A stretch of 64,000 nt of DNA from Pseudomonadota bacterium (GTDB lineage: Bacteria > Pseudomonadota > Alphaproteobacteria > Sphingomonadales > CAKZYD01), in assembly GCA_039814715.1 (NCBI GenBank), contig JBCCAR010000003.1, positions 99,393 to 163,392 on the forward strand, given 5' to 3'. Below the pieces are notes generated by a model that saw nothing but the letters and a program-made list of their open reading frames with translations, was not told the origin of the DNA and searched no databases. Position 1 is the stretch's first letter; every line of letters starts with the position of its first letter. A program made the position numbers and the translations under genes. Below are positions 7,448 to 43,749 of this stretch, one piece after another.

Positions 7448-8562
7448 TTGCCTGTATAATTGGGCACATTGTCTGCTAAAAATTCGGCGTTTTCCGCCCT
7501 TAAAGCTGCGCCTGCTTCATCATAAAGAAACGGCAAAAATACAAATCGGTTCCCTTTGGTAACCGGCAGCGCCTCGTGAAGGAGGCAGCAGCCAAACACC
7601 ACGGCGCCTCCGCGCGGCGCGACAAAAACCTGGTCTGAGAACTCAGGGAACCGTAATCCGCCGCCTTCATAGTCCCCCGTATTGAGGTTGATAGTCACAG
7701 CAAAGGAGCGGTGCGCCGTTCCCTTTGTCGTATTGTCGCGGTGCGGAAGGAAGAACCCGCCTTTTTCTTTCGTATAACAGGCGACAATGTAGCGCTCCAT
7801 GCGCGTCGCTTTAAAGTTCAATGAGCGATGCAATATAGGAACAAGACGTCTTTCAACGCGCAGTCGTGCCTCCTTGCGCAGGTCTTCATCGTCTATCTGA
7901 CTGTCGAAGCGGACTTTAAAACTTGGGTTTTCTACATAGACTGTTTGGCCGTCCTTTTCAGACATAACGCCGGAGTATTGTGCGCCTGCTTTTTTGTAAT
8001 AACGGATGAGTTCCTGGCAGAAGTCTTCTTCAAAAACGCGCGGTACGACGAGGACGGGTGGGTGAAGTGGCGCGCCGGCATGCTCATAGGGCGGGGGCAT
8101 GTGCGCAATAACGTCTAACGCTGTGCTCAGCTCTTCAAGCGGCGCGCAATGCAGGACGCGCAGCATGGGATCGCAAACGACGGCCATTGGCCGAATACGC
8201 ATGTCATCACCATTGCCGATCCGCTTACCTAAACGGTAGAGCTCAAAAATCTTGCCGCCAGCATCATCAAAATGCCGGATACCCGGTAAACGTGGCTGCG
8301 ACAAAGGAGTTTGCCCCGTTTTTCCGTCCGCCCAGATCGCGAAGCAACTCGCTGTGTTATCGTCAAAAAGGGAGCAGTTGCGGACCTGTTCCATCACCTG
8401 TTTCGCCGTAGCGTTGTCGTGCGATCCAATGAAAAGCAAAATCACATACCGGCCCGCCGCGCTGCCAAAAGCATAGCGTGGATTTGAGCCGCATTTGCCG
8501 TGAAATAAGGGGGCTAGGGCGCCTGGCTCGGCATAGAAAGTTGGTTGGTGCGCTGGATGCAT
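7426..8562 (-). CDS. 2OG-Fe(II) oxygenase family protein (prolyl-4-hydroxylase-like) with N-terminal redoxin-like region
   Basis: 378-aa ORF. The C-terminal half carries an HxD...H facial-triad context (FFLPHRDNT ... [23 protein letters not shown]). The N-terminal half ([24 protein letters not shown]) resembles a thioredoxin/peroxiredoxin-like fold. It overlaps mnmA convergently by 22 nt. Confidence 0.7.
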
Positions 8563-8741: not shown

Positions 8742-9068
8742 CTACCATTTGGCTTCCAAAGACATGATGCGCTTGGGCTTTAGGCCAACGCTGAGGTCTA
8801 CGTTGACAGAGCGATATTCATCGCCAAAGAGTGAATAACTCGTTTGCGTATCATTCGGCCAGCTCTCGAGATTCCGCATCACATGCAGATCAGCCAGTTG
8901 GCTGGATTGGCCCACTTTTAATTTTGAGGCTGGCAATGCCGGTTTGGGCGTGGGTTCGGGCAAGAGCCACATGGCTTTCACAGGCTGCACGAGCAGCCCA
9001 TTGGCCTGCGCGCTGAAGCACGTCAAAAGCGCGACTGACAGTCCAAAAAGTAAGTGCCTCAAGCGCAT
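8742..9068 (-). CDS. Small secreted hypothetical protein (signal peptide)
   Basis: The internal Met gives MRLRHLLFGLSVALLTCFSAQA, a classic Sec signal peptide. The mature part is about 85 aa and ends in an aromatic residue (EAKW). It lies 125 nt downstream of the TolC-like gene on the same strand. I recognise no family. Confidence 0.5.
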   Translation of the reverse strand: MRLRHLLFGLSVALLTCFSAQANGLLVQPVKAMWLLPEPTPKPALPASKLKVGQSSQLADLHVMRNLESWPNDTQTSYSLFGDEYRSVNVDLSVGLKPKRIMSLEAKW

Positions 9069-9193: not shown

Positions 9194-11902
9194 TTACTCG
9201 TCCGACGTTAAGGCATAATACAGGCTGCCAAGCTGCTGAAGCACGCGGAAAGCGGCTCTGTTTTCTTGGTAGCTGTTGAGCACTTGTTCGAGTTTTGCAT
9301 TGATCAGCGCTTGCTGTGCATCCAGCAAATCAAAGGCTGTGCGGTCGCCTGCGCGAAATTGCTCTTCATACAGCCTTACAACTTCTTTTGCGGCATCTAC
9401 TTGATCGCGAATGGTATCCACCTTCGCGCGGCTGGCATCGATTGCCGTAAAGTCATTGCGAATGTTCTGTTCAACTTCGCGGCGTTGTTTTTCAAACTCG
9501 AAACCAATTTCTTTAATGCGTGCACGTAGACGAGCTGACACTGCGCTGTCAGCGCCGCCGTTGAAAGCATTATAGCGCAAGAACATCATAGCGCGCGCAT
9601 CGCGCGTCTCGCCGGTTTCCCCAGCCACATCCGTCCGCAAGTTGCCTTGAACTTCAACTTCCACTTTTGGCAAGAAATTCCCGCGGTGGCTGCGCAGTTG
9701 GTTGCGAATGGACTTGGTATCCGCCTTCACTTGCAAGAGCCGCGGGCTTTCTTCTACGCTGCGGTCAGCTGCGTCCTGCGGGCTTTGCGGCAGGAGAGAC
9801 AAGTCAAGGAGCGGATCGACCAACAGGCCAGGCGGTGCATCCAAAAGGCGGCGATATTGATCGCGTGCTTGCTGGAGTTTGCTTTCTTCTTCCAACATGA
9901 AGGATTCAGCGTTTGATAAGCTGGAGGCAACGCGGTTCACGTCAGCGGCCGTGCCTTGGCCAGCTTCTTTTTGAGCTGTTACAAGGTTGAGAATGTACTC
10001 ATGCGCTTCTAAGTTTTGATGCGCCAAGGCGACAACTTTTTGCTGCTGCAAAACGCCTAAATAGGCAGTTGTGACTTCGTAAGTGAGGTCTTCCACGCTT
10101 TGCAGCTTTTCCAGCTTGGCCGATTCATAGTTCTGTTTAGCGCGGCGGTAATCAAACTGTGTCAGGCCAAAATCAAACACAGTCTGGCGCAAAGTGGCGT
10201 TGAGTTCACGGCGAATACGGGTGATTTCTTCATTGCCGCTTTGGCGAGAGACTTCTGGTCCGCCGCCAGCGTTGATATCAACTTTCGGCAAGAAGCCAGA
10301 GCGCGCCTCGCGCACAGCATAAAAGGCATCTTCCTGCTGTGCTTCAGCGATTTTTACGTCTGGGTTTGTCGCAATGGCATGTTCCACAGCATCGCGCAAG
10401 GTCTCCAGGCCGCCTTGGCCAATGGGCCGCGCTTCATACTTCGTCGATGTCGTTTTAACAGATGCAACGATGCTGCCGCGGTCTTCATTAGGAACATTCA
10501 AGAGCTTTGCTTCGCCTGGCAAACCGACCATGTCGATCACATCCAATGATTGCTCCCGCGTTAAGAAATCCTGCTGGAGGGTTTGCGGTGTCGCTTCAAT
10601 AGATGGGGCTGTCTCGCCTGCGCCAGCTCGCAAGCTCTCTAAGGCTGTGGATTCCGCGCTGGCCACCTTCGCTGGTTCTTTAAGCTGTTCTGCTGCGATC
10701 GGCGCACTCTCTACAATGGACGCAGACTGCGCGGTCTGCGTCGTTTCGCCAACCAAGCCCTGCCACGCGCCAATGCCTGCCAGTGTAATCTTGGCAGCAG
10801 CGTCACTGGGAGGGTTTGCCGTCCGCTTTTGCTGAACTGAAATGTCATTGTCGGCGTTCGCCGCCGCTGATCGGACAATCTGCGCGTTATAGTCTGCAAG
10901 AGGGTTTTTGGTTTTAGGCAGTGTAGCGAGCTGCTTGCGAACCAAGGCTGGCAGAGGGTCTGGCTTTGGTACTAGGCTTTCAGGCCGCATCAATGGCACG
11001 AGACGTATATCAAATGTGGCAACCTGCTGCGTCGTCAATTGCGCGTTTGTGTGACCGCTTTTAATGGCCGCCATTACTGTGCGTTTTGGCGTCTCCTGCG
11101 TTTCAAAGACAGATATAGGTCTCTTCAGCGCTGCAATCTCAATTGTTTGTATTGGCTCAAGCAGTGCGGCTTGCAGACTTTTTGCGCCTTCCGCGATAGA
11201 AGAGACGCCGCGCTCTAAAGCTGCGACGGAAACTGTCGGGATTTGCGGGTTTAGCGCAGGCGCCAATGACGTTGGTCGTTCAAGACGCTCCAGCGCAATG
11301 CTTTGCGCCTGCGCGAGCTGCGTCCTCATAGCCGTTTTTTCAGCATCACGCGCGCTGAACTCTGCTGCAATTGATTTTATTGCTAAAACATCGCGAGGCA
11401 CGGATGCTACAGTGATATCGCGGCTTGCCTTCAGTTCTTTTGCGGCAAAGGCGCGCTGCCGGGCCAATTCCTTTTGTCTGGTTTTAATTTGCTTTTTATC
11501 AGCCGAACCCAGCAGCGCTTTAGGCCTTTCAAGCGCCTTGAGCGACACATTGAAAGGCGGCGCTTGAACGCGCTGTACGAATTGTGCTTCAGGCTTGATA
11601 ACCGGCAGCATGGGCTGCACCGCTGCTTTTATCACCCGTGCTGGCGATAGCGGCGGCGCGCTGGGTGACTGCGTGTCCCAAGTCTCGGGTTGTTGCACCA
11701 TAGCGTCCGCCGGCCCGGCTGAGGGTTCTATAAAGCGCTCAAAGCCAGGTTGGAGGCCGATCACATCGCCGAAGGTCGCTCGGTCCATATAAATGGGATC
11801 GTCGGAAACGCTGACAATCTTGGGTTTCTTTTTGCCTGCAACCGCAGGGCTCGCCAGCACAATGGCCACTAGGCACAGGCCAGCCAGCCTCAGCACGCGC
11901 AT
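9194..11902 (-). CDS. TolC-family type I secretion outer-membrane protein with ~500-aa N-terminal extension
   Basis: The C-terminal ~405 aa (from GGLETLRDAVEHAIATNPDVKIAEAQQEDAFYAVREARSGFLPKVDINAGG) have the two-repeat TolC/OEP layout. The start is taken at MRVLRLAGLCLVAIVLASPAVAG (signal peptide); the track ORF opens 15 codons earlier. Residues ~40-510 are non-TolC and Ala/Pro/Gln-rich with recurring ALERP-like motifs. Confidence 0.85.
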   Translation of the reverse strand: MRVLRLAGLCLVAIVLASPAVAGKKKPKIVSVSDDPIYMDRATFGDVIGLQPGFERFIEPSAGPADAMVQQPETWDTQSPSAPPLSPARVIKAAVQPMLPVIKPEAQFVQRVQAPPFNVSLKALERPKALLGSADKKQIKTRQKELARQRAFAAKELKASRDITVASVPRDVLAIKSIAAEFSARDAEKTAMRTQLAQAQSIALERLERPTSLAPALNPQIPTVSVAALERGVSSIAEGAKSLQAALLEPIQTIEIAALKRPISVFETQETPKRTVMAAIKSGHTNAQLTTQQVATFDIRLVPLMRPESLVPKPDPLPALVRKQLATLPKTKNPLADYNAQIVRSAAANADNDISVQQKRTANPPSDAAAKITLAGIGAWQGLVGETTQTAQSASIVESAPIAAEQLKEPAKVASAESTALESLRAGAGETAPSIEATPQTLQQDFLTREQSLDVIDMVGLPGEAKLLNVPNEDRGSIVASVKTTSTKYEARPIGQGGLETLRDAVEHAIATNPDVKIAEAQQEDAFYAVREARSGFLPKVDINAGGGPEVSRQSGNEEITRIRRELNATLRQTVFDFGLTQFDYRRAKQNYESAKLEKLQSVEDLTYEVTTAYLGVLQQQKVVALAHQNLEAHEYILNLVTAQKEAGQGTAADVNRVASSLSNAESFMLEEESKLQQARDQYRRLLDAPPGLLVDPLLDLSLLPQSPQDAADRSVEESPRLLQVKADTKSIRNQLRSHRGNFLPKVEVEVQGNLRTDVAGETGETRDARAMMFLRYNAFNGGADSAVSARLRARIKEIGFEFEKQRREVEQNIRNDFTAIDASRAKVDTIRDQVDAAKEVVRLYEEQFRAGDRTAFDLLDAQQALINAKLEQVLNSYQENRAAFRVLQQLGSLYYALTSDE

Positions 11903-12160
11903 GCGTACTGTGGTTGCCAGCAGGTATTTTTTCCCGCTGATCAACACCTGGCCAACCTATTGCGTGTTGCCACTGACACTAAACTCCAAACTCGCGCGAA
12001 AACTTCTTTACGAAATATTTAGATAAGTAAACGAAATGTAATCGTAGACCTCCGCTAAGAAATCACTTTCTAAACAGGCAAGGTAAAGGGTGAGTTAACC
12101 CTAACGTTCTCCAAATAATTTCTACAATTTTCACTATTTGGAAAGCCTGGCGGATGAAAA

Positions 12161-15100
12161 ATGGCAATTCGAAGTATTGTGTCAGTGGCGAATGGGTCTT
12201 CAATGGCTGAAGAGCAGACGGCGGGTTCACCGCCTTCAGAAGAAAATGTGCAAACAGATCAGAACGTTGCACCGCTGGCTGTTGCCGAAGTGGCAGCGGG
12301 CGGTCAGCTTGTGTTCGACTTCCCTTACGAATCGGTTGAACTTGAGTTCATCGATGTCGACGTCCTTTTTAAGTTCCCAGATGGTAGCCAAGTCCTCGTA
12401 CCAGGTCTTGGTTTGCTCGCGCTATCTGACAATCCGCCGACGATTGTGTTTGCTGGCTTTCCAATCCCGGCAGACCAGCTGCTAACCCGCGTTGGCGAAT
12501 TTACGGACATTCCCGAAGCAACACCGCCTTTGTTTAGTTCAGAAGAAACCCTGGACCCGGTGGAGGAGACAGACGATTCCGCTGAGCAGGCTGAGTTTTT
12601 GACGGCTGCTGAGCAACAGGCTCCTGGCGGCATCCTATCAGAGACAATTGAAGAGGCTGCTGCTCAAAAGGCAGTTGAAGAAAGTGAAGCGGATTCCGAC
12701 GCGGAAGAACAAAGCCGCATTATCGAGAAAATCAGCAATGAGAGCGCATCTGCTGCTGCTGCTCCGATGGACCCTGCCTCTAGCCCAGATCCCACCGAAG
12801 AGGTTGGTAGCTCGATTGCTGAACTCACGCCTTCCATTACGATAGAATTGTTCGGCGTCACAGGCCAAACAACCGAAGTCGTAGATGGCCGCACGATCTT
12901 ACGCGGCGCGGCTGCAGCGACGGGTGCTGACGAAGACCCAGCCTTCGGCGCGCAAGTTGAACGCGAACAGATTACTGGCAGTTCAGCGAGTGAGACTATC
13001 ATCGCTGATTCTGAAGTGTTAGCGCCCGAGGGTTTCACAACGCGGATTTTGCGCGTTGTCGCTGATATTCCCCAATCGGGTGTTGAAGTGACCAAGATCA
13101 CTGTTCCAACGCTTCCAGATGGCTTCTCGGTTATTAATGGTGAGCTGACGGACGCAGGCTGGGTCATCGATTTAGACGATCCCCTGGCGAATGCAGATTT
13201 TGATGTTGCAGCTGTGAACATCGGCTCCACTGCGGTCGGGTTTGATATTCAGCTGCAATATGCCATTCCCGAAGATGGGGTGACCCAAACAGAGTCAGGC
13301 TTTCTCAACGAGTTCTTTGTTCCCATTGCCTTTACCTTGAGTTCAGAAAGCGCCCAGAGCGTTTCTGTCGCTTCAGTTCAGGCGCGGATGGCGGTCAATC
13401 CGGCCGCCTCTGAAGAGGACGTCTACCTGGTTGATGAACAATCAGGCGAAGCTATTACGGTTTTGTTTGATGTACCGCCAGGCAACATCATTGATGCTGG
13501 CGCGGGCGATGACTTGATTGTTGCCGGTGCTGGGCAAGACGACATTGACGGCGGAACGGGCGAGGACCTCGTCTCCTATGAAACCTCTGACGAAAGTGTA
13601 GAGGTCAACCTAGAAAACGGCGCTGGTACAGGTGGCTATGCAGAAGGCGATAATTTCACCGGCATCGAAGGCGCCATAGGCTCACGCTTTGATGATGTAT
13701 TGCGCGGCGGAGCCGGTGATGAACGCTTTTCCGGCCGCGGCGGCGAAGACGAATTAATTGGCGGCGCGGGCGTAGATATCGCCGACTACCGCATATCTGC
13801 AGAAGCGATCACCTTATCAACAGACGGCAGCCTTGGCGCCGGCGGCGATGCGCTAGGTGATACACTTACGCAAATTGAAGGCATTGATGCCACCGACTTT
13901 AATGACGTGCTCACTGGCTCTGGCGCCAATGAAATTCTGCGCGGTTTTGCTGGCGATGACACAATCGTTGGCCTTGGCGGCGCAGACGTCCTCGACGGCG
14001 GTGAGGGCTATGACATCACCGATTACAGCGCGTCTTCTGCTGCGGTCACTGTCTTCTTGGACGGTAGGACAGGCAGCGGCGGCGATGCGGCCGGGGATGT
14101 TTTAAGCGGCTTTGAAGAGCTACGCGGTTCCGCTTTTGATGACAATTTGACGGGTGACGCCGCTGACAATTTCCTCGTCGGTGGCCTCGGCGCAGACACC
14201 ATCGACGGCGCCGGCGGGATTGATACAGTTGATTTTAGCGCTTCAGAGGAGGCCGTCACTGTCTTTATGGATGGCCGTGTTGGCTCTGGCGGTAAGGCAG
14301 AAGGCGACGTTATCACCAATGTTGAGCGTCTCTTTGGCTCAGACTTTGACGATACATTGATCGGGGGCGATGGCGAAGACAGCATCTTCGGCGGGCTTGG
14401 GGATGATGTGATCTCCGGCGGCGCTGCGGGCGATATGCTGTATGGCGGCGAAGGCTTTGATGCCGTTTCCTATGAGTTCTCTAGCGCTGCTGTGAATGTC
14501 TCCCTCGATGGCACGTCCACGGGCGGTGATGCGCAAGGCGATCTCTTTTTTGATGTTGAAGCGCTGTTTGGCTCGAACTTCAGTGACACGCTCAGCGGGA
14601 CTGCAGGCAATGATCAGCTCTCCGGCTTGGGCGGTGACGACATCCTGATCGGCGGTGAAGGCGGGGACATCCTGACAGGCGGCGCCGGGTTTGATGCTGC
14701 AGATTATTCAAATTCACGCACTGGTGTCACCGTCTATCTCGATGGCACGATCTCTGAAGGTGGAGAGGCGGACGGCGATACTCTGACTGAAATTGAGCAA
14801 GTCATCGGATCGCGCCGTGCTGACATTATAAACGGTTCGGACAGCGATGATCTTTTAGAAGGCCGGGACGGCGATGACATTCTAGAAGGTGCCAGCGGCG
14901 CTGATACTCTTGAAGGCGGAGACGGCCTCGACACCGCTCGATATGCGTCCAGTGATGTTGGTGTCTTGGTTGATTTGCTAGGCAATGCCGGCACTGGCGG
15001 TCATGCGCAAGGCGACCGACTGCAGGATATTGAAAACCTGACGGGGTCCGGTTTCGCCGATCAGTTGACCGGCTCAGCGGGAAACAACGCGCTCGATGGT

Positions 15101-18100
15101 TTGGGCGGTGATGATATTTTAGAGGGCCTCGCCGGCGCAGATACACTGCGCGGCGGCGATGGGGTTGATACGGTCACGTATGCGGCGTCTTTCGAAGGCG
15201 TGACGATCGATCTGTTTACCTCCACTGGCTTTGGCGGCCATGCTGAAGGCGACCTGATCTTCCAAATCGAGAATGTAATTGGCACCCAGGCAGCGGACCG
15301 CATTACAGGGAACGCTGAGGTCAATCAGCTTGACGGTGCTGGAGGCGATGATGTTCTCGTTGGCGGTATCGGGGCAGATGTTCTTCTCGGTGGCACCGGC
15401 ATTGATACAGCCAGCTATATTAATGCGTTAGCTGGTGTCACAGCATCTTTGGCTCTCGATGGCGGCACCGTCGGTGATGCGCAGGGCGATACGTATTCCT
15501 CGATTGAGAACTTAGAAGGCTCTAACCTTGCCGATACATTGATCGGCGACGACGATGACAACGCCTTATCGGGCCTCGCTGGCGATGATACCCTCATTGG
15601 CGGCGCCGGTGCAGACACCATCACTGGCGGCGGCGGGTTCGACACGGTTGATTTCTCCACTGAGACCGCAAATTTGATCATCCGCCTCAATGGTGATGCT
15701 TCTATTGGCGGAGAGGCAACCGGCGACCGGTTTTTTGAAATCGAACAGGTCATTTCCGGGAGCGGAGACGATCAGCTAACCGGCTCAACAGCAAATGAGA
15801 GCCTTCTCGGCGGCGACGGCAATGACATCTTGGTCGGCGGCGCTGGCGCGGACTTGCTTGATGGCGGCGCCGGCATTGATAGCGTAACCTATGCGGCATC
15901 AGCGACGTCGGTTATTCTCAATCTGGATGGCTCCCCATCGCTTGGCGGTGATGCAGATGGCGATACCATTATCAATTTGGAAATCGTCACTGCCTCAGAG
16001 TTTAACGATCAAGTGTTTGGCGCTGCCGCCAGCGAGACGATCTTTGGCGGAGCCGGTAACGACGATATTTATTCTGGCTTGGGCGCTGACATTCTGGATG
16101 GCGGGCTGGGATTTGATACGGCTAATTATAGCCTGTCAGGCGCTGCCGTCACAGCAAGCCTTGGCGGCGGGCCTGGCTTTGGCGGAGATGCGCAAGGCGA
16201 CACGCTCACTGGGTTCGAGCGGCTTTTTGGTTCTGCATTCGGCGATACGCTTATTGGCGGGGACAGCGATGATACGCTAGAAGGCGGCGCTGGTGATGAC
16301 GTGCTTGCAGGTTTTGGCGGCGCAGACAACCTTGTCGGCGGGGCTGGCCAAGATATTGCCGATTATAGCGCATCTGGGTCTGCGGTTTTTGTCCGATTGG
16401 ATGGGTCATTATCGTCCGGCGGCGATGCAGCTGGCGATACGCTCAATAGCATTGAAGGCGCCATTGGCTCCGTCTTTAACGACAATATCGTTGGTTCCAT
16501 TAACGACGAGATTATTCGCGGCGGTGCTGGCGACGACACGCTTGATGGCGGTCTTGGTGCGGATGAAATCATTGGCGGCGCCGGCATTGATACACTCGAT
16601 TACCGCGGTAGCTCGGCTGCTATCTCCATCCGTTTAGACGGGTCACTCAGTACAGGGGGATTTGCTGAAGGCGACCAAGTCAGCGAAGTAGAGATCGTTT
16701 TTGGATCAAGCTTTGGCGATACGATCGTTGGCGAAACGGCAGCCGAAACACTCGATGGCGGCCTTGGAGATGACATCCTCACAGGGGCTGGCGGCGATGA
16801 CATTTTGCGCGGCGCAACGGGTGAAGATACTTTAGAGGGCGGTCAAGGCGCTGACTTGCTTGAAGGCGATGAAGGAGATGACACTCTTAGCGGCGGCGTA
16901 GGCGCTGACGTCTTAGACGGCGGCGGCGGACTTGATACGGTCACCTACATAACATCTGGCCAGGGCGTAACGGTGGCTTTGGATGGCAGCGCTGGTGCTG
17001 GCGGTGATGCGCAAGGTGATACCTACATTCAGATCGAACGTGTCATTGGCTCAGATTTTGCTGATAGCCTCAGTGGCAGCAGCGACAATGATGTTCTAGA
17101 AGGCGGGGCGTCGAACGATACTCTGGCAGGCCTCATTGGGGCCGATACGCTGCGCGGTGATGATGGCGACGATATCCTTATTGGCGGTCTTGGCGCTGAT
17201 ACTCTAGATGGCGGCGCTGGTATTGACTTGGCCGATTACAGTGGGTCAGCCGCTGGGATCATCGTTTCAACCACAGGTGCACCTGGCGGCGGCGGCGATG
17301 CTGCTGGCGACTCCCTAATTTCAATTGAGACTGTGCTTGGGTCCACTTTCGCGGATGTTATTTCGGGCAGCACGGCAGATGAATTGCTGCGCGGTAACGA
17401 TGGTGATGATGTCTTAGCTGGCGGCGCTGGCGCGGATGATCTGCGCGGCGATAGCGGTTTCGATACCGTCGATTATACCGCCTCCAACGCAGCTGTTGTT
17501 GTAGACATGTTCAACGACACTGCCACTGGCGGCCACGCTGCGGGCGATGTTTTTGACTCCATCGAAGCGGTTACCGGTTCGAGCTTTGATGACGTCTTAA
17601 GCGCAGACACCGGCGCTGGCGCAACGCTTGATGGCGGAGACGGCGACGATGATCTGCGGGGGCGCGACGCAGAAGACACTCTGCGCGGCGGGGATGACAA
17701 CGATATCCTCCAAGGCTTTGGCGGCGCCGATGATTTAGACGGCGGCGACGGTTTTGATACCGCCACTTACGCAAATTCCGCCTTTGCCGTTCGTGCGTTC
17801 TTGGATGGCACAACTGGCGCAGATGGCGACGCTGCTGGCGACCGCTTGACGAGTATTGAGCGTCTCGTTGGCTCAAACCTAGACGATACGCTGACCGGCG
17901 GAACCAGTGATGATACATTAGAAGGCGGGCAAGGCGCTGACTTACTCCTTGGCGGCCAGGGCGTGGATACGCTGCTTGGCGGCCAAGGCGATGACCAGCT
18001 CAATGGCGGCCAGGGCGGGGACACCATTGACGGCGGCGCAGGTGTTGACCTTCTCGATTATTCTGGATCAACCCTCGGCGTTACCGTTAACCTCGATGGC

Positions 18101-21100
18101 AGCGTGTCGACCGGCGGCGACGCACAGGGCGATATTGTTACCAATGTAGAGCAGGTCCTTGGCTCTTCCGTTGATGATGTTTTGACTGGCACCGCTGCCG
18201 ATGATTTGCTTGACGGCGGGTTTGGCAATGATCAGCTGAACGGTGAAGGCGGGGTCGACACTTTGCTCGGCGGTCAGGGCGATGACGTGCTTGATGGCGG
18301 CTTGGGCGGCGATATTTTAGACGGCGGTGCAGGCTTTGACCGCATTTCATATGCGCAATCAACCCAAGCTGTGCAGGTGGTTTTGGATGGCACAGTCTCC
18401 ACAGGCGGCCAAGCCCAAGGGGACCAAATTTCGGACGTCGAGCTGATCATCGGGAGCGATTTCGATGACGTGATGACAGGCGTTGCCAACGATGAGGTCT
18501 TTGAAGGCGGCGATGGCGACGACTTATTGATTGGCAACGCGGGGACAGATACCCTGCGCGGCCAGGACGGCAACGATACCCTCATTGGGGGCGAAGACGG
18601 CGACACGCTGGAAGGCGGCGCTGGCATTGATACAGCTGACTATTCTGCATCGACGGCTGCGGTGACCATTGACCTCAATGGGACTTTGGTTGCCGGCGGC
18701 GATGCCAATGGGGACACCTTAAGCAGCATCGAGCGCCTCATTGGCACCAGCGCGGATGATATTCTGCGCGGCATCAATGTTGATGAAACGCTCATCGGGA
18801 ATGACGGCCGCGATACCCTTGAAGGGCGCGGCGGGGCCGATGTGCTTCAGGGCGGGGAAAACAATGACACCCTTATTGGCGGTACCGGCGCAGATACGCT
18901 CGATGGTGGCGCAGGGCTCGATACCGTCACTTACGCCGACGCCGCGGGCAGCGTTACTGTCTTCTTGGACGGGTCCTTGGGCGCAGGAGATGAAGCCCTG
19001 GGTGATACTCTAACCGCAATTGAAATCCTCATCGGCTCTGACTTTGACGACGTGTTGACAGGCTTTAACGCAGCAGAGCAGCTCGAAGGCGGCGACGGCG
19101 ATGACGTGCTCAGCGGCGGCGATGAAGATGATGATTTGCGCGGCGGTATCGGCCAAGACACCTTGATCGGCGGACGTGGTGCAGACGCTATCGATGGCGG
19201 AGATGGCATTGATACCGTCGACTACACAGGCGCGGAAGGCGGCGTTATTGCGCGGCTCGACGGCGTTGCTGGCAGTAATTTTGAAGCGCAAGGTGATTTG
19301 ATTACCAACGCTGAACGCCTGCTGGGCTCGGCGTTTGATGATGAGTTAGTCGGCAGCGGTCAGAATGACCAGTTAGAAGGCAATGCCGGGGCCGACTTAT
19401 TGCGCGGCGCAAGCGGCGATGATGCCCTCTTCGGCGGTCTTGGCGCTGATACGCTTGAAGGCAGTATCGGGAACGACACGCTAGACGGCGGCGCAAACGA
19501 TGACATCCTGCGCGGCGGCGCAAATGGGGATGTGCTGCGCGGCGATGCAGGTTTTGATACAGCAGATTACTCAGATTCGGCCTCGCGCATTATTGTCAGC
19601 CTGGATGGGTCTGCGGGCCTAGGCGGCGATGCACAAGGTGATACACTCTTTGATATCGAGCGTGTGATTGGCACGTTTGACGATGATGAAATCACCGGTA
19701 TTGGCGGCAATGAGACGCTTGAGGGCGGCCTCGGCAATGATGACTTAGAAGGCGCTGGCGGCGACGATATTCTGCTTGGCGGCGGCGGCGACGACAACCT
19801 GTCTGGCGGCGCTGGTGCAGACGCCCTTGATGGCGGTGATGACATTGACACGGCTGACTATTCCGGTAGTTCCGTTGGTATCCAGCTCACACTAGATGGC
19901 GTGACAGTCGGGCAAGGCGGCGACGCGCAAGGCGATACGCTGATCAACATCGAACGTCTTTTTGGTTCCGATTTCGACGATGTCCTTACTGGCTTTAGCT
20001 TGAATGAAATTCTCGAAGGCGGGGACGGCGATGACATCATCAGTTCCTTAGGCGGTACTGATACCATCCGCGGCGGCGATGGCAATGACACTCTTCGCGG
20101 CGGCGCCGATGCCGATATCATTGATGGCGGCGCGGATTTCGATACCGTGCTGTATGACACATCAGACGCCGGTGTGACCGTTAATCTCAACGGCGTTGCC
20201 GGTATAAACGGTCATGCGCAAGGCGATGTGCTTAGCCTCGTTGAACGTGTTGTTGGGTCAGATTTCGCTGATACGCTTAATGGCTTTAACGCGGCTGATG
20301 TTCTCGAAGGCGGCGCCGAAGACGATGTCATTTCAGGTGGCGCAGGAAATGACACTCTGCGCGGCGATGCTGGCGATGACCAGATCGACGGCGGCGACAA
20401 TGATGACACCATTGATGGCGGGACTGGCGACGACACGATTACCGGCAGCGACGGGACGGATGCCATCGATGGCGGCGACGATTTCGACACCATTGATTAC
20501 AGCACACAAACGACAAATCTGTTCATCTATCTAGATGGAACTGCCAATGCTGGCGGCGATGCCACCGGCGATACGCTATCAAATATCGAACAGGTCTTTG
20601 GTGGGCTACTGAACGATACGATTATCGGTACGGCAGAAGACGAAGTCTTAGAAGGCCGGGCCGGCATGGACCGCCTAGAAGGGCGCGGCGGCGACGACAT
20701 CCTGCGCGGCGGGTCTGAGCAGGACACCCTTATTGGCGGCGCTGGCGCAGACACGCTTGTCGGTGGCGGCGATACAGATACGGCTGATTATAGCGGCGCT
20801 GGCGGCGGCGTGACGGTACGTACGGATGGGATGGCCGGCACGGGCAGCGATGCCGAAGGCGATACGCTTGAGACAATTGAAGTTGTCATTGGGTCTGACT
20901 TTGCAGACACGTTGATCGGCAACGATACATTCGCGACAACGCTAGAAGGCGGCGATCTCAACGATGTCCTCACCGGCGGCGCACTCAGCGATACGCTGCG
21001 CGGCCAAGATGGCGATGATACGCTGATCGGGCTTGCTGGCTCAGACACGCTTGAAGGCGGTATGGGCTTTGATACGGTCGATTATTCCGCATCATCAGCC

Positions 21101-24100
21101 CCAGTTACAGTGTCGCTTGATGGCTCTTTGGGCGCTGGCGGCGACGCCATTGGCGACAGTCTGTCCTCAATTGAGCGAGTTATCGGGTCGACACGCGACG
21201 ATATCATCACCGGTTTCAATCAAAACGAAACTCTTGAAGGCGGTGACGGCGACGATACGCTCACTGGCGATATTGGCGATGACATCCTGCTGGGTGAAGC
21301 AGGAGATGACATCCTTACTGGCGGCGTTGGAGCTGATACGCTGGACGGCGGTGATGACTTCGACACCGTTGATTATTCCGCCTCTGACGCCGGTGTGACA
21401 ATCGTCTTGGACGGGACAACGCTTGGTGTTGGTGGGCATGCGCTGAATGATGCCATCAGCAATGTAGAGCGCGTTATCGGCTCTGATGATGCCGATGTAA
21501 TCACAGGCGTTGGGAATGACGAAACGTTTGAGGGCGGCACTGGCGCTGATACGCTGACCGGTGCTGGCGGAGATGACACGCTGCTTGGCGGCACCGGCGC
21601 AGACGTCTTAACCGGCGGCGCAGGGGCAGATGTGATCACCGGCGGCGGCGACATAGACCGCGTCATTTACAGCGGTTCCGCACTCGGTGTGACCGTCTTT
21701 CTTGATGGAACGGCCAGTACTGGCGGAGATGCGCAAGGCGATATCGTCACTCAGGTAGAAGAATTCGTCGGCTCGGCGCAAGGCGACACTGTCACCGGCA
21801 CCAATATCGGGGAATTGTTCCTCGGCGGCGCCGGCGCGGACACCATCATTGCGGGCGGCGGCGTTGATGATCTTCGCGGCGAGGCTGGCGATGATATTCT
21901 GCGCAGTGGCCTGGGCGCAGATACGCTCGATGGCGGTGATGACTTTGATACTGCCGATTACTCCTTCTCTATTACCGCCGTCACAGCCTATCTAGATGGC
22001 ACCGCCGGAGTGAACGGTGACGCCGATGGTGATACCTTAACGGATATAGAGCGGCTGCTTGGCACGGCGTTAGATGATGCTCTGTTCGGTGCAGGAACAA
22101 ATGATACGCTTGAAGGCAATTCTGGCCAAGATACCCTGACCGGGAACGCAGGCGATGACACGCTCATCGGCGGCGGCGCAGATGATGTGCTCATTGGCGG
22201 CGCGGGCAATGATGATTTGCAAGGCGGTTTTGGGGAAGACACGGCAGACTATTCATCTTCCGTACTTGGAGTCGTCTTAGATCTGGGTGCCAATAGCGGC
22301 ACAGCTGGCGATGCCGATGGCGATACCTTTGATTCGATAGAAATTGTTGTTGGCTCGGATGAAGCTGACGATATTACCGGGTCCGACAATCCAGATACAC
22401 TGTTCGGCGGCGACGGCGGCGATACCTTGCGCGGCGGCGAAGAGGATGACGATCTCTTTGGCGACGATGGGAATGACATCCTCATTGGCGGTCTGGGTGC
22501 GGATGGCTTGAACGGCGGTATTGGCGATGACACGGCCGATTATTCTGGCTCAGGCGTTGGCGTTACGGTCTTTCTCGACGGCAGCGCAGGCCTTGGCGGG
22601 GAAGCCACTGGCGACCGCCTCAATAGCATTGAAGTGGTGATTGGCAGTGCTTCAACAGACTTCATCTACGGCACGAATGCGTCAGAAACACTGCAAGGCG
22701 GTGCATCCGGCGATACGCTAAGCGGCGGTCTTGGCGATGATACCCTTCTTGGTGAGGCCGGCGACGACATGATCGTCGGCGGCGGCGGCGGCGACACCAT
22801 CGACGGCGGCGATGATTTCGATACGGTAGATTACTCAGGCTCAACCCTTGGCGTCACGATCGTGCTTGATGGGACAACGCTTGGCACAGGTGGAACGGCA
22901 GCCAACGACACTGTTGTTAACGTTGAGCGCCTGATCGGGACGTCCGTAAATGATGATTTCACCGGCGTTGGCGCTGATGAAACCCTGGAGGGGCGCGCTG
23001 GTAGTGACACATTGCGCGGCGGTGGCGGGGATGATCAGCTACTTGGCGGAACAGAAAACGACACCCTCATCGGCGGTGCAGGCGCTGACATTTTAACAGG
23101 CGGAGACGGTGTTGATACCGCTGATTATTCTGCCTCATCTGCTGATCTGACCGTTTATTTGGATGGAACCGCTGGTGCTGGCGGGGACGCGCTGGGCGAT
23201 ACGCTGTTTACGGTTGAAACGCTGCTCTCAGGAACCGGCAATGATATGCTTTTCGGCTCTATCGTTGCGGAAACCTTTGAAGGAAGTGATGGTGATGACA
23301 CCATCACAGCGCGCGGCGGAAACGACACACTGCGCGGCCAAGCTGGTGACGATATTCTTATTGGCGGCGAAGATGCCGATGTTATCGACGGCGGCGGCGA
23401 TACTGATATTGCCGATTATAGCGCCTCAAATGCAGGCGTGACGCTGAACCTCGATGCCACCATCTCGACAGGTGGTCATGCCACAGGCGACCAGCTGATT
23501 GACATTGAGCATGTCATCGGCTCCGCTTTCCAGGACACTTTCAACGGCACGGCCGCGGCTGAGACCTTTGAAGGTCGCGGCGATAATGACAGCATCAATG
23601 CCGGCGCTGGCATCGATGTGCTTATCGGCGGGCTAGGCGATGATATTCTGCGCGGCGGCGCTGACGCCGACCAGCTCGACGGAACATCTGGCAATGACAC
23701 CGCGACTTATAGCGATGCTGGCGACAGCGTCACTGTTTATACCGACGGTACGGCAGGCGTTGGCGATGATGCCCAAGGCGATACGCTGCAGAACATCGAT
23801 ATCGTTATAGGCTCGGACTTTGCTGACACTCTGATCGGTCATGCTGGCTCTCAAACACTGCAAGGTGGATCGCAAAATGATGATCTGCGCGGCGGCGAGG
23901 GCGATGATATTCTCGAAGGCCAAGGCGATAATGATACGCTCGATGGCGGCGGCGGCGCTGATATTCTGCGCGGCGGTGATGGAATTGACATTGGTGACTA
24001 TACCAACGCTTTGGATGATGTGACGGTCTTCCTTGATGGAACCGCTGGTGTCGGTGACATCGCCGACGGGGACACGCTCTTTACCATTGAGACCCTCTAT

Positions 24101-27100
24101 GGCTCAGCCTTTGACGATACCCTCACTGGCGCCTTACAAGGCGAGCGTTTGGAAGGCCGTGACGGCAATGATTTGTTGTCAGGTGACTTTGGCACGGACA
24201 CCCTGCTTGGCGGCGATGGGGATGATATTCTTCGTGGCGGTTTAGGCGGTGATACGCTTGATGGCGGCAACGACTTCGATATCGCAGATTATTCTCTCGC
24301 TGGCGGTTCGGTTACTGTTTCTCTTGATGGGTCGCTTGGCACGCAGGGTGATGCGTTAAATGATACCTTAACCGACATTGAGCGTTTGGTTGGCTCCAGC
24401 AACAACGACACACTTTCCGGTTCTAATGCCGCCGACGAAATTTGGGGCGGCGACGGCGAAGACACTATTACCGGCGGACTGCTTGGCGATGATCTGCGCG
24501 GCGATGGCGGTAATGACACAATTGATGGCGAAGAAGGCGCTGATAGCATTGATGGCGGCACCGGCGATGACATCATCTTAGCCAGTGAAGATGGCGACAC
24601 CATCGACGGCGGTGACGATTTCGATACCGTCGACTATAGCGCGTCTACGCTTGGCGTCACAGCATATCTGGATGGTACGCTTGGGGTCGGCGGCTTAGGG
24701 CTAAATGACACGCTCAGCAACGTCGAGCGCCTGATTGGTACGAGCGAAACCGATACCTTCTTTGGCGATACGACCGACGATACCCTTGAAGGCCGCGGCG
24801 GCGATGATGTGCTGAACGGCGGCGCAGGCGCGGATACCATTTTGGGCGGTGCCGGCGCCGATCAAATCGATGCCGGTGATAACGATGACAGCATCGATGG
24901 CGGTACTGGAAACGACATCATTACTGCAAGTGCAGGCGCGGATAACATTGATGGCGGCGATGATGACGACACTTTGACTTACGCCGCCAGTGCGATTGGT
25001 ATCGACATTGGTCTTGATGGATCAGCCGGCTCAGGCGGCTTGGCCCAAGGGGACCGTATCTTTGGTATTGAAACGCTGATTGCGACAACTGGCGACGACA
25101 TCGTACGCGGCATTTCCACCAATGAAACCATTCAGGGCGGCACCGGGAATGACACGCTGCGCGGCGGCGGCGGCGATGATCTCCTTGAGGGCGAAGTCGG
25201 CGATGATATTCTAGAAGGCGGAAGCGGGGCTGATACCCTTGATGGCGGCGCCGGCGGCTTTGATATTGCCGATTATGCCAACTCCTCCATCGGCGTTGAC
25301 GCCCGCCTTGATGGGACAGCAGGAACGCTTGGCGATGCAACCGGTGATACGCTCATAGATATTGAAGCGCTGTCAGGGTCTGCCCTCGATGATTTGCTCA
25401 TCGGCGGCACTGCAAATGACGAACTACGCGGCGTCGATGGCAATGATGAGCTGCGTGGTTTTGACGGCGATGACCGTTTGATTGGCGGCGGCAATAACGA
25501 TCTGCTGATTGGCGGCGCTGGGAATGATTTCTATGATGGCGGCGCTGATTTTGACACTGTGGACTTCTCTGGTGAAACTGATGCTGTGGTGGCCGATCTC
25601 TCTTTGAGCACAATCACGATCGGCTCGGGTTTAGGTCAGCAGGATGAGACCATTCAGAATGTTGAACGCTTGATCGGTACTGCTGAGAATGACACTTTCA
25701 CCGGCAATATCTTTGCTGAAACCTTAGAAGGCCGTGATGGCGATGATACGCTTAACGGTGCGTCCAGCGACGATATCTTAATAGGCGGCATTGGCAACGA
25801 CACGCTCAATGGCGGCTCTGGTGAAGATACGATCGATGGCGGCGAAGGCGACGACATCATTGATGCAGGCAGCGATGCCGATACAATTAACGCTGGAACC
25901 GGCAACGATCTGATCATTTCTTCTAATGACGCTGATGCGATCGACGGCGGCGATGACTATGATACTGTTGACTATAGCAACTCGATTGCAGGCGTTACCG
26001 TCTTCTTAGACGGCACGGCTGGTGAACGCGCGAATGCTATCGGCGATACGCTCAGCAATATTGAATACGTCATTGGGTCTGGTAGTGACGACATTCTCAC
26101 AGGTCATAGTGAAAATGAGCGCCTAGACGGCGGCAATGACGATGACATCCTAGACGGTGCCGGGGGCGATGACATCCTGAACGGCGGCAGCGGTGATGAT
26201 CAGTTCATTGCCAGCTTGGGCGCCGATATCATGGACGGCGGAAGCAACAGCTCCGTCAATACCGGTTTCCCAAATGGCGGCCTATCAACGCGCGATGTCG
26301 TGGATTACTCCGCAGCCACGGGTGAAATTGAAGCCTATCTCGACGGGACAGTCGGCGTCGGTTTTGAAGCTGCAGGCGATACAGCTGTCAATATTGAGTC
26401 GATCATTGGCGGTGATTTTGATGACATTCTAGGCGGCAACGCCAGTGCCAACACGTTCCGCGCTGGTGATGGCGACGACACCATTACTGGTGAAGATGGA
26501 AATGATATTGTTTACGCTGATGAAGGCGCTGATGATTTCGATGGCGGAACCGGCGACGACGCGATCAACTACACTTCGGGCACCGAGGGCATCACCATCT
26601 TCACTGATGGAACCGCAGGGACTGGCGGTTTGGCTCAAGGTGATACGCTCTCAAATGTAGAGCGGGTCTATGGCACTGATTTTGCTGATAGCATGACGGG
26701 CCACACAGGTACGCAGCGTTTCTTCGGCAATGACGGTAACGACACGTTAATTGGCGGTGAAGGCGGTGACCAGCTTGAAGGCGGTAGTGGCGAGGACTTT
26801 ATTGATGGTGGCGAAGGCAACGACACCATTAGCGGCGGAAATGATGATGATGTAATTCTTCTCACGGCGGGGACGGACAACATTAACGGCGGCAGCGGAC
26901 GCGATACGCTTGACGCCTCAGGGCTGGCAAGCCGCGTCCATGTGAATTTTGCCACTGGCAGCGGTACATTGGGCGACGCTTCCGGTGACGATTACGATTC
27001 CATAGAGATATTCATTGGTACCGATTTTAATGACTATGTCTTGGACTCAGGCGCGACAGAAGACTATTACTTAGGTCTAGGCAATGACCAAATCGATGCA

Positions 27101-30100
27101 CAAGGCGGCGGCGGTATTTTCGATGGCGGCGGTGGTGTCGACATCTTGGAATTCAACCGGTTCGATGTTGCTGGCGTTGATGTCGTCATGGACGGCACCA
27201 CGGTTGGTGTGGGCGGCTTTGCCGACGGAGCGACCTTTGAAAACTTTGAACGTATATCGCTAACCGCATTTGATGACAGCTACGTTGGCTGGGCGGGCGA
27301 TGAACAAATTGCTGGTGCACAAGGCGCGGACGATATCGACGGTGGAGACGGCTTCGATTTTGTCGTCTTCCTTGATGATATCAATAGCGGCGGCGGGGCC
27401 AGCACAAACTTCGCTTTAGACGGTCGGATAACCGCCACCGGCCGAGCTGTGGGTGACACCGTAACCAACGTTGAAGGTGTTATTGGTTCCAATAACGACG
27501 ATATACTCGGCGGTGACAGCGGTGATAACGAGCTTCGTGGATCGGGTGGAAATGACACTCTACTCGGTGATCTGGGCGCCGATGTTTTGGATGGTGATAA
27601 CGGCGAAGATACGGTCGACTACTCACTTGCGGGCGCACAGATTAACGTTGCGCTTGGCGTTGGCGGAGTGGGCGACATTGCCGATGGCGATACCTACAGC
27701 GAAATTGAAAACGTTATCGGCTCAGGGTTTGATGACGCCCTGCAAGGGACGTCAGACGCAAACAACCTGAACGGCGGCGAAGGCGACGATATCTTAATCG
27801 GGCTAGAAGGCGGTGACCTCTTGGTTGGCGCTGGCGGTTTTCATGACGTTGCGAACTATAGTGCCTCTAATGAGGGCATCACAATTAGCATGGACGGCTC
27901 TTTCGGACTAGGCGGCCATGCAGCGGGCGACCAGCTTCTCGGTGTCGAGGATGTCATCGGGTCCATCTACGGCGACGATATTACCGCAGATGGCAACATC
28001 AACAGCCTTCAAGGCGGTGATGGCAATGATTTCCTTCAAGGCAACAATGGCGGCGACGTCCTTGATGGCGGGAACAACTTTGATGTCATTCGCTATGAAG
28101 GCTCCGATGCAGCTGTCACTGTAGACCTCGACGCGCAAACCGCCTCAGGCGGCCATGCAGACGGCGATACACTCATCTCAATCGAAGGTGTCTACGGCTC
28201 GGCCAATAACGATATCTTCTCAGGCTCATCCCGAGATGAAGATTTCCGCGGTGAAGCAGGTGACGATAACATTGCAGGGTCTGGCGGAGCAGATGATATC
28301 CGCGGCGGTGAGGATACAGATACCCTTACCTATTTGGCTGCTGGCGCAGGCATCACGCTCACGCTTGATGGCACAACCGTTGGCACGGGCGGCGATGCAG
28401 CAGGCGATACCGTTCGCGAAATCGAAATCCTGTTTGCCACGGACAACATCGATAACATTACCGGCGTCGCCCTCAATGAAACCCTATATGGCCGCGGCGG
28501 CGCCGATGCACTCGATGGTGCTGGCGGCGACGACATTCTGATTGGCGGTGCAGGCGGGGATACGCTGATCGGCGGGGGCGGAACGGATACAGCTGATTAT
28601 AGCGGCTCTGCTGCAATTCAAATCGTTCTCGATGGGTCTACGCTGGGCATTGGCGGTGATGCAGCCGGTGACGTGATCAGCGGTGTTGAGACGATTATCG
28701 GTACTGATTTCAATGACGTCGTCACGGCGACGGTCTTACAAAGCACTTTGCGCGGTGAGGGCGGTGATGACCAACTCACCGGCAGTAATCTAGATGATGT
28801 GCTGCTTGGCGGCGCCGCGCAGGATTCGCTGTTTGGCGGCGAAGGCGATGATGACCTGCAAGGCGAGGAAGGCAATGACATCCTAGAAGGTGGCATCGGC
28901 GAAGATAGCCTGGATGGTGGGTCTGGGAATGATACAGCGAGCTATGCCACTGCTGGAAGCGGGGTCGCGGCTAGCATCGCGGCGGGCGGCGGAACGCTTG
29001 GTGATGCCAATAACGATACCTTCACGGACATCCAGAACCTGACTGGTTCCGGTTTCGATGACACCCTCACCGGGGACAGCAACGACAACACCTTAACGGG
29101 CCTTGCCGGCGTCGATACTCTAGATGGCGGCCTTGGCAACGATACTATTAACGCCGGCGCAGGTGACGACATTATTATCGCCAGCGTAGGCGGCGATAAC
29201 ATTAACGGCGGCGATGATAACGATACCGTCGATTATACCGCCTCTGATGCGTTTACGATTACCATCGGTACTGGTTCAGGTACTGGCGGGATTGCCCTTG
29301 GTGATACGCTGATCGATGTAGAGATCATCCTGGGCGGCGCGCAAGGCGATAACATCACCGGCGATGGTGACAACAATACGCTGACCGGCAATGGCGGCGA
29401 TGACATCCTCGACGGGGCTGGCGGCGATGACTTGCTGCAGGGGAACGCGGGCGCTGACCAATTCACTGGAGGCACTGGTACCAACACCATCGAAGGCGGC
29501 GCGGGCACCGATACGATTTTCGGCGGTACCGGCACAGACCTGATCGATGGCGGCGGAGAAGTCGATACAGTTGATTATTCTGCAGACACTGCAGGCATAA
29601 CGATTGCCATTGATGGCATGGCGGGCAGTGGCGGCCTAGCAGCTACAGATACACTGACAGACGTTGAAAATATTATCGGCGGCAGCGGCGTTGATACGCT
29701 TACGGGAGACGGTGAAGACAATGTGCTCACTGGTAATGGCAACGCAGATATTCTAAGTGGCCTAGGCGGCAATGACACCTTAGAAGGCGGGGCCGGGAAC
29801 GATACCCTGACTGGCGGGACGGGCACAAACACGCTCAATGGCGGTCTAAACGATGACACCTTCACCGGCGGCACCGGAGCTGATCTGATCGACGGTGGTA
29901 GCGGTTTCGATACGGTCGATTATTCAGCGGACTCCGGCGACAATACCATCACGATCGGCGGCGGCGCTGGAACTGGAAGCTTTGCCAGCAACGACACACT
30001 TGCGGGCGTGGAACGAATTTTGGGCGGAACGGGCGTCGATAACCTGACAGGTGATGGCAACGACAACACGCTGATAGGCAATGACGGCAATGACGTTCTA

Positions 30101-40473: not shown

Positions 40474-40571
40474 GATTGCTAAAACCCTAAGCGTTAATCC
40501 TAAGGGAGTTTTAACGCTTGAAGGGCTAACAAAGCGTTGAGACGGGATCAAACGAGTGCGGATTGCAGCTC

Positions 40572-43643: not shown

Positions 43644-43749
43644 CCGCGCCGCTATGTTTAGGATATCTTCAACTCTTAACGTTAACGCTCTGTACAAGCC
43701 GCGTCCTTTGCAACGTCAAAGTGCGCGGACAAAGGCGGCTTGAGAGCGT

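Follow-up and report, generated by a model that had tools for sequence, protein, structure and literature searches.

A TolC-family outer-membrane factor with a long, modular N-terminal arm in a small alphaproteobacterial clade

Why would a TolC-family channel protein, usually about 430-500 amino acids (aa) long, place 511 residues ahead of its core and reach 917 aa? The question is raised by a gene within a 64,000-nt stretch of contig JBCCAR010000003.1 (assembly GCA_039814715.1), here called the window, in which about 475 extra residues separate the signal peptide from the TolC core. TolC channels are usually viewed as compact, self-sufficient ducts, and their positioning and anchoring are still being worked out; the 2025-2026 discovery of YbjP, a partner of Escherichia coli TolC, shows that this work is in progress (PMC13016604). 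As the best explanation, we favour on balance a true TolC channel equipped with a modular periplasmic arm for tethering or docking. The parts of the gene are given below, with residues numbered from the first GTG of its open reading frame (ORF); pLDDT is the predicted local distance difference test of AlphaFold.

9194..11947, minus strand: the extended TolC-family outer-membrane factor gene, a single open frame encoding 917 aa from the GTG or 902 aa from Met16
11837..11902, minus strand: Sec signal peptide, residues 16-37 (MRVLRLAGLCLVAIVLASPAVA), with an AxA cleavage site and without a lipobox
11543..11788, minus strand: module A, residues 54-135, conserved in the alignment (M..T.GDVIGLQPGFE ... 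PARV.KAA. ... QFV..V.APPF)
11282..11506, minus strand: helix pair, residues 148-176 and 187-222, rich in Lys, Arg and Glu, with a conserved V.A..PRD turn between the helices
10565..11281, minus strand: hypervariable Ala/Pro-rich middle, residues 223-461, predicted to be disordered (pLDDT mostly 25-45)
10415..10564, minus strand: module B, residues 462-511, conserved in the alignment and directly ahead of the core (LT.EQSL.VIDMVGLPG....L.V.NEDR..VASVK.TSTKYE..PIG)
9197..10414, minus strand: canonical TolC core, residues 512-917, with two OEP repeats, four beta-strands and long helices (TIGR01844, PF02321, AlphaFold, Foldseek)

Met16, at position 11902, is the probable start, and the interval 10415-11902 corresponds to residues 16-511 of the ORF.

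Residues 515-910 matched positions 3-401 of the 414 in the TIGR01844 model (243.7 bits against a cutoff of 225.15), and PF02321 (OEP; E 3.6e-50) matched in two stretches, the best of which covers residues 518-702. Both profiles bear out the sequence-only reading of this DNA, which had let the recognisable TolC/OEP core begin at about residue 512 of the 917-aa ORF. An AlphaFold model built on a 78-sequence alignment assigned pLDDT values above 90 to residues 511-917 and returned the standard TolC protomer topology, with core strands predicted at residues 555-568, 574-591, 761-772 and 780-791, that is, four per protomer. This model replaced a first run on a 6-sequence alignment, in which the core, too, had been predicted badly (mean pLDDT 45.6). 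Foldseek aligned the protein with E. coli TolC (1ek9/2xmn) at E about 2e-23 over about 420 columns, with a target template-modelling (TM) score of 0.79-0.80; among the Foldseek matches listed, no solved outer-membrane factor chain exceeded 493 residues. No C-terminal tail follows; protein and core end at the same point. For the NodT/OprM lipoprotein family, TIGR01845 reached 66.8 bits against a cutoff of 210 (210.05), and there is no lipobox Cys. An ABC exporter, an HlyD-type adaptor and a giant RTX protein encoded in the same locus make up a type I secretion system (T1SS) partnership. By every criterion of sequence and predicted fold tested, the protein belongs to the TolC family, with an atypical N-terminal arm; the family's usual short length is a typical property, not a defining one.

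The extended TolC is one gene with a single N-terminal signal peptide. The strongest 12-residue hydrophobic stretch of the protein starts at residue 21 (mean hydropathy 2.97), cleavage is predicted at the AxA site before GKKK, and the sole Cys lies within the hydrophobic core of the signal peptide (LAGLCLV), outside any lipobox; the clade orthologues carry equivalent N-terminal signal peptides. No second signal-peptide-like stretch precedes the core in the window protein or in its extended relatives, so a TolC started internally could not be exported. An identical 917-aa protein is present in the NCBI metagenome-assembled genome (MAG) record and in the independent Logan assembly SRR22824269. 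In other assemblies (NCBI MAGs, JGI 3300037604/3300037603/3300022689 and several Logan runs), eight further relatives (P0002-P0006 and P0008-P0010; 617-930 aa as called) are each encoded by one unbroken ORF, and the same neighbour genes accompany them wherever flanking DNA exists. Module B continues without a break into the TolC core. The GC content of the codon positions in the extension follows the same order as in the core (GC1 > GC3 > GC2). Compared with P0002, the closest relative, the variable middle shows a lower proportion of nonsynonymous differences (pN 0.50) than of synonymous ones (pS 0.81); dN/dS could not be computed for the extension, because synonymous sites are saturated against this relative (pS about 0.8), and we therefore used dN and the comparison of pN with pS.

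That two genes had been joined by a frameshift or an assembly error, or that the start had been extended wrongly ahead of a real TolC beginning at an internal codon, has a likelihood close to nil: nine clade members, drawn from different samples and put together by different assemblers, share the uninterrupted architecture, an internally started protein would lack the means of export, the junction of module B with the core is seamless, and an extension profile retrieved no stand-alone protein among 1.84 billion cluster representatives. The sequence-only reading had named a separate upstream gene as the finding that would overturn it, and this test failed to split the ORF. Since no stand-alone homologue of the extension was found by profile search, an origin by fusion with a formerly separate gene is likewise unsupported. 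For annotation, such long TolC ORFs should be neither split nor trimmed. One apparent exception among the relatives, the "missing" signal peptide of P0002, was rejected: its ORF stays open for 57 codons further upstream and encodes the signal peptide there, the database gene call being about 57 codons short at the N-terminus (L010 5502-5672). P0001 and P0002 both come from run SRR22824269, which means that two related species with a long TolC share one sample.

The anatomy of the extension was taken from an alignment of nine clade members (the window protein and the eight relatives) together with the AlphaFold model. Among the seven members with a long extension, modules A and B are almost invariant, against 26-47% identity in the rest of the extension. 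Module A contains the invariant columns M54-E70 and is partly retained even in the short variants P0009 and P0010; module B is largely invariant and 88% identical to that of P0002. The first helix and the turn of the helix pair are conserved in 7/9 members and absent from P0009 and P0010, in which the variable middle is wholly deleted along with the helix pair. Within this middle, which is marked by many indels, W395 is the sole invariant residue, and identity to P0002 falls to 32% as against 94% for the core. The nonsynonymous substitution rate (dN) against P0002 rises accordingly from 0.04 in the core and 0.09 in module B to 0.26 in module A, 0.63 in the helix region and 0.83 in the variable middle.

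With respect to structure, the two helices were predicted with pLDDT values of about 94 and 91 (about 80 and 75 in the 6-sequence model), while module A reached 33-50 and module B 40-52. Outside the helix pair the extension stayed below 50, in the same model that places the core above 90 and the helices at 91-94; a check for disorder with AlphaFold, proposed in the sequence-only reading, thus found most of the extension below 50. That reading had also described the roughly 470 residues after the signal peptide as rich in Ala, Pro, Gln and Lys. Enrichment over the core does hold for Ala (15.1% against 11.9%), Pro (8.6% against 2.5%) and Lys (6.5% against 4.0%), but not for Gln (7.1% against 7.7%). 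Aromatic residues make up 3.2% of the extension and 6.7% of the core, and the extension is not of extreme low complexity. A sequence search of the PDB with the extension gave 0 matches at E up to 1.

A short repeated element runs through part of this arm. It follows the 14-residue pattern x-[IV]-x-[LV]-x-A-[LM]-x-R-P-x-[ST]-L, and its core, L[EKM]R[PG], occurs at residues 139, 222, 244, 274 and 319. All five motifs quoted in the sequence-only reading are present:

11510..11551, minus strand: copy 1, NVSLKALERPKALL, residues 133-146; the motif is also present at this position in the orthologues P0002, P0008 and P0004
11261..11302, minus strand: copy 2, SIALERLERPTSLA, residues 216-229
11195..11236, minus strand: copy 3, TVSVAALERGVSSI, residues 238-251, with Gly in place of Pro; the aligned position in P0002 is VTLTAMARPETLL
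11105..11146, minus strand: copy 4, TIEIAALKRPISVF, residues 268-281
10970..11011, minus strand: copy 5, DIRLVPLMRPESLV, residues 313-326; orthologous to DIRLTAMARPETLV in P0002

The reduced pattern h-x-R-P-x-x-h was observed four times in the window protein against 0.25 expected, a count equalled by 1/2000 shuffles. A 14-residue scoring matrix (threshold 12), trained solely on the five copies of the window, retrieved copies in the extensions of five relatives (four in P0002, two each in P0008 and P0006, one in P0003 and one in P0010, where shuffled sequences average about 0.01). The TolC cores gave no match, nor did the 38,846 residues of other TolCs collected; the rest of the window, read in all six frames, gave a single borderline one (12.2). 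The motif is thus a genuine, clade-specific repeated short element. Given its unstable copy number, from 0 to 5 within the clade, it is not an absolute requirement.

How far does the arm extend beyond this clade? The extension profile returned two matches among the 1.84 billion representatives, both of them long TolCs of the own clade. Signature peptides of the extension identified one locus in 185,579 species genomes (GTDB genome scan), in an uncultured "Sphingomonadales" MAG, and a scan of JGI metagenome contigs with extension peptides yielded no relative. Querying a word index of 5.8 billion proteins with the extension only was uninformative, as it missed even the identical database protein, presumably due to low-complexity crowding; full-length and core-only queries recovered the family. 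In these sequence searches, the extension is without detectable relatives outside a small alphaproteobacterial clade. Sorting the collected TolCs by core identity to the window protein gave three groups:

Distant TolCs (n=23), core identity 31% or less: a median of 26 pre-core residues, that is, the signal peptide only, with two exceptions
Subfamily (n=49), core identity 41-49% (Sphingomonas, Novosphingobium, Geminicoccaceae and many metagenomic members): a median of 132 pre-core residues, maximum 285
Focal clade (n=9), core identity 81% or more: 212-524 pre-core residues

At least 90 pre-core residues, rich in Ala and Pro, precede the core in 38/49 subfamily TolCs but in 2/23 distant ones. 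The window protein represents the long extreme, with 511 pre-core residues against a maximum of 285 outside the clade, where none reaches 60% of its length; at the lower end of the clade, P0009 and P0010 have 212 and 247. The subfamily members P0012-P0060 are the nearest relatives by core and mostly bear an Ala/Pro-rich arm, beside a protein of 5,900-9,100 aa where examined, but their arms are shorter, not detectably homologous, and devoid of modules A and B, the helix pair and the 14-residue motif. Other short motifs, such as GP(L/M)PDGTP(L/I)A and (L/V).DPYA, recur in the arms of sphingomonad-type relatives (P0018-P0060); they were seen by eye and are unrelated to that of the window.

The statement that TolC proteins of T1SSs lack such an extension, made in the sequence-only reading, consequently holds for distant TolCs and fails for the protein's own subfamily. 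Its counterpart, that the reading would fall if extensions were common among ordinary TolCs, applies in part, as arms are common in the subfamily, albeit shorter and non-homologous. The window arm is the extreme end of a subfamily-wide tendency and not a new kind of system. Our literature search on N-terminal extensions of TolC or on Pro-rich TolCs returned nothing relevant, and the subfamily-wide tendency was not encountered there.

What the arm may serve is suggested by the company the gene keeps. At each of the eight subfamily loci examined (8/8), the TolC gene adjoins one for a protein of 5,926-9,275 aa:

P0040: 63 pre-core residues, giant protein of 6182 aa
P0016: 113 pre-core residues, giant protein of 5926 aa
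P0010: 247 pre-core residues, giant protein of 6648 aa
P0014: 275 pre-core residues, giant protein of 9054 aa
P0060: 280 pre-core residues, giant protein of 6654 aa
P0004: 502 pre-core residues, giant protein of 8508 aa
Window protein: 511 pre-core residues, giant protein of 8805 aa
P0006: 524 pre-core residues, giant protein of 9275 aa

Pre-core length rises with the size of the giant protein (Spearman 0.83, p = 0.01, n=8; window plus L001, L003, L005, L006, L007 and L008). The sample is small and phylogenetically non-independent, and collapsing the three close relatives leaves a correlation of 0.77 with p = 0.07, for which reason we treat this relationship merely as a lead. The window holds the following neighbours:

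7426-8562, minus strand: 2OG-Fe(II) oxygenase, prolyl-hydroxylase-like (PF13640), without a signal peptide, near downstream of the TolC gene
8742-9068, minus strand: small secreted protein, in all clade loci seen the immediate downstream neighbour of the TolC gene
12161..38578, plus strand: giant RTX-repeat protein of 8805 aa, the presumed T1SS substrate, with HemolysinCabind repeats at both ends, divergent from the TolC gene
38575-39117, minus strand: DUF4166 protein, between the giant RTX gene and the HlyD gene
39160-40551, minus strand: HlyD-type adaptor (TIGR01843 at 340.6 bits)
40563-42731, plus strand: LssB-type ABC exporter (TIGR03375 at 635 bits, slightly under the cutoff of 693)
42804-45918, plus strand, after the ABC exporter gene: OmpA/MotB-like protein (279 aa), then a 556-aa MotA-like protein, then a PilZ-domain protein (165 aa)

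Domain matches in the first two members of the last group are weak and under the Pfam cutoffs (OmpA, E 7.7e-05, in the OmpA/MotB-like protein; MotA_ExbB, E 0.004, in the 556-aa protein). The trio resembles a SiiA/SiiB-type proton-channel accessory pair plus a reader of cyclic di-GMP. It is homologous to that of Sphingomonas deserti (L007; blastp E 8e-28, 4e-75 and 8e-16), where the neighbouring TolC has 63 pre-core residues only, and the genes of the P0060 locus (280 pre-core residues), one for a Pfam PilZ protein among them, are ordered alike; at least two subfamily loci thus possess an OmpA-like/MotA-like/PilZ trio. Since the module accompanies arms of 63, 280 and 511 residues, the extension does not co-vary with it, and the co-variation suggested in the sequence-only reading was rejected.

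A few further features of the locus are worth recording. As listed, only 11 bases separate the start of the HlyD ORF from that of the ABC ORF on the other strand (the equivalent gap in S. deserti is 96 bases); their true starts are probably internal, because 11 bases leave no space for two promoters. The DUF4166 ORF, on the opposite strand, ends in a 4-base overlap with the giant RTX gene at its stop codon. On the side of the TolC gene away from the RTX gene lie mnmA and flagellar genes, together with the small secreted protein and the oxygenase. The small secreted protein measures 108 aa from Met32 of its 139-aa ORF, as does the call in L011, matched no known family, and has a conserved C-terminus (YSL.G....SVN.D.SV.LKP.R.MSL.A.W). 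In L001, L003 and L010, the oxygenase is conserved a short way downstream of the gene for the long TolC. The idea that it modifies the repeated motif of the arm (L-x-x-L-x-R-P, cf. LxxLAP of HIF) was judged weak, because the enzyme is without a signal peptide and because it is kept in the P0004 locus, whose TolC has no matrix-scoring copy.

In TolC and OprM, the N-terminus departs from the equatorial domain into the periplasm, outside the helical barrel (PMC8277102), and in OprM a short lipidated N-terminal segment starting at this equatorial belt gives a second anchor (PMC8277102; PMC13016604). With its N-terminus at the equatorial belt and exported by the same signal peptide, the arm must hang in the periplasm; the proposal of a periplasmic tether in the sequence-only reading is thus the natural one. 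Most of the extension is predicted to be disordered, and it evolves fast. We picture a genuine TolC channel of a type I system, whose cargo would presumably be the adjacent 8805-aa RTX protein, bearing three modular periplasmic arms per trimer. Each arm would consist of a conserved head (module A), a rigid charged helix pair, a mostly disordered and fast-evolving spacer in which the motif occurs 0-5 times, and, as its foot, the conserved module B. The conserved islands and the repeated motifs may bind a component of the envelope (peptidoglycan, the inner-membrane translocon or an accessory protein), and the variable spacer would allow the arm to reach far enough. The arm may attach to peptidoglycan, to the ABC/HlyD translocon, to the MotAB-like pair or to the small secreted protein encoded downstream. 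In this way the channel could be held or positioned while very large cargo undergoes its long secretion, and possibly while it is retained at the surface. A tethering or docking function, inferred from the architecture and the association with giant cargo, is the likeliest role.

Several observations weigh against this proposal. In the extension, residues 38-511, neither a known peptidoglycan-binding domain (OmpA-like, LysM, SPOR, PG_binding) nor any other domain was detected (Pfam at E up to 1; NCBIfam), the monomer model places neither module A nor module B on the core with confidence, and no arm-binding partner was identified. The low pLDDT of the extension stems partly from a shallow alignment, as only about nine sequences span it. 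Matrix copies of the motif are absent from P0004, P0005 and P0009, so that their number reaches 0 in three members. The helix pair and the middle appear dispensable for a working channel because P0009 and P0010 lack both; more generally, relatives with a short arm or none evidently function, and the homologous system of S. deserti works with almost no extension.

Its main rival is a mostly neutral expansion, in which a low-complexity linker is tolerated at a free periplasmic N-terminus and changes by slippage or duplication, the islands serving only export or folding of the channel. We regard this as possible, though improbable on the whole. It would fit pre-core lengths of 212 to 524 within a clade of at least 81% identical cores, the loss of the middle in P0009 and P0010, the gulf between variable region and core in identity, motif copies varying from 0 to 5, subfamily extensions that share no detectable sequence with the window arm, and a homologous system that functions with a 63-residue pre-core region. 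It sits less well with the near-invariance of modules A and B in the seven long-extension members and with a pN below pS in the variable part. That extensions persist in 38/49 subfamily members as opposed to 2/23 distant TolCs argues for selection to keep the arm in a giant-cargo context. A display of the arm outside the cell, which the sequence-only reading had offered as an alternative, is extremely improbable: outer-membrane proteins with exposed N-terminal passengers provide a general precedent, and no result here supports it. The N-terminus of the TolC family is periplasmic at the equatorial domain (PMC8277102), the standard four strands per protomer leave no extra barrel or translocator, and threading through the channel would block secretion.

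More specific, and decidedly improbable to us, is an anchor to peptidoglycan, either non-covalent or with the mature N-terminus joined to meso-diaminopimelic acid (meso-DAP) by an L,D-transpeptidase (LDT), which would let the channel take up the load of a pull on the giant surface protein. Brucella outer-membrane proteins have an N-terminal Ala-Asp motif, the Brucella/Coxiella type of linkage calling for Ala-Asp or Gly-Gly at the mature N-terminus, and manual reading of the likely cleavage sites gave a mature Ala-Asp N-terminus in 4/9 clade members (P0004, P0005, P0009 and P0010). LDT-mediated N-terminal attachment of outer-membrane proteins to meso-DAP is established in Brucella abortus and Coxiella (PMC12729407). 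The locus further encodes a weak OmpA/MotB-like protein of the peptidoglycan-binding type, and extension length rises with giant size (Spearman 0.83, n=8), though with p = 0.07 after collapsing close relatives. Yet the same reading gave Gly-Lys-Lys for the window protein, Lys-Asp-Asp for P0003 and P0006 and Gly-Asp-Lys for P0008, and Ala-[Asp/Glu] is common after cleavage anyway; a covalent peptidoglycan link is possible, but the predicted mature N-termini vary across the clade. No peptidoglycan-binding domain was detected in the arm, and 475 residues far exceed the reach needed, the wall being already level with the equatorial domain.

Returning to the tether or docking arm, a bolder version would make it a functional hallmark of giant-protein T1SSs in Alphaproteobacteria: a flexible tether whose length scales with cargo, and whose islands and motif form an undescribed class of periplasmic docking motifs by which the channel is fastened either to the cell wall or to the translocon in the inner membrane, the MotAB-like pair being one example. 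We consider this unlikely; if true, the channel would stay assembled and bear load while a protein of 6,000-9,000 residues is secreted or held. Either way, the whole giant-cargo TolC subfamily carries N-terminal periplasmic arms, and one small clade reaches about 475 residues, with conserved islands that resemble docking sites. Should these arms be tethers, they would provide a genetic handle on how a channel is held during secretion or retention of very large adhesins; should they be neutral, they would be a clear example of free expansion at a periplasmic N-terminus. A natural length series from 63 to 524 pre-core residues, with a shared accessory module at 63, 280 and 511, makes the system experimentally approachable.

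Among known systems, TonB, domain II of TolA and the LpoB linker are disordered Pro/Ala-rich spacers that give reach across the periplasm. The window arm has a comparable composition and a predicted lack of fixed structure; theirs, however, start at the inner membrane or at an outer-membrane lipid anchor and end in a binding domain, of which none is recognisable in the window arm (Pfam, PDB). In Salmonella pathogenicity island 4 (SPI-4), the channel SiiC is of ordinary TolC length, and the system is not known to include a PilZ protein. SPI-4 (SiiABCDF/SiiE) is likewise a type I system with a giant surface protein, and the OmpA-like and weakly MotA-like proteins of the window are equivalently placed, a likeness drawn from placement and weak domain matches. 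SiiA is a MotB-like peptidoglycan-binding subunit with a disordered periplasmic linker, and SiiB is MotA-like (bioRxiv 10.1101/641415). With E. coli TolC the window protein shares the fold (TM about 0.8), TIGR01844, a non-lipidated Sec signal peptide and the partnership with an ABC exporter and an HlyD-type adaptor; E. coli TolC, which serves both HlyBD-TolC type I secretion and AcrAB-TolC efflux, however, has 471 residues (PMC8277102), and its mature chain begins directly with the core, where the window protein has about 475 residues inserted. YbjP, an accessory at the periphery of TolC (9tg4 and 9v52 are among the Foldseek matches), is a separate folded lipoprotein and not a fused, mostly disordered arm, and no similarity was detected; it is considered to help anchor or escort the channel (PMC13016604). 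In OprM/NodT-type factors the tether is short and fixed in the outer membrane by a lipidated Cys, whereas the window arm spans about 475 residues with no lipobox, but in both an N-terminal segment leaves the equatorial domain, which would offer the channel a second point of attachment.

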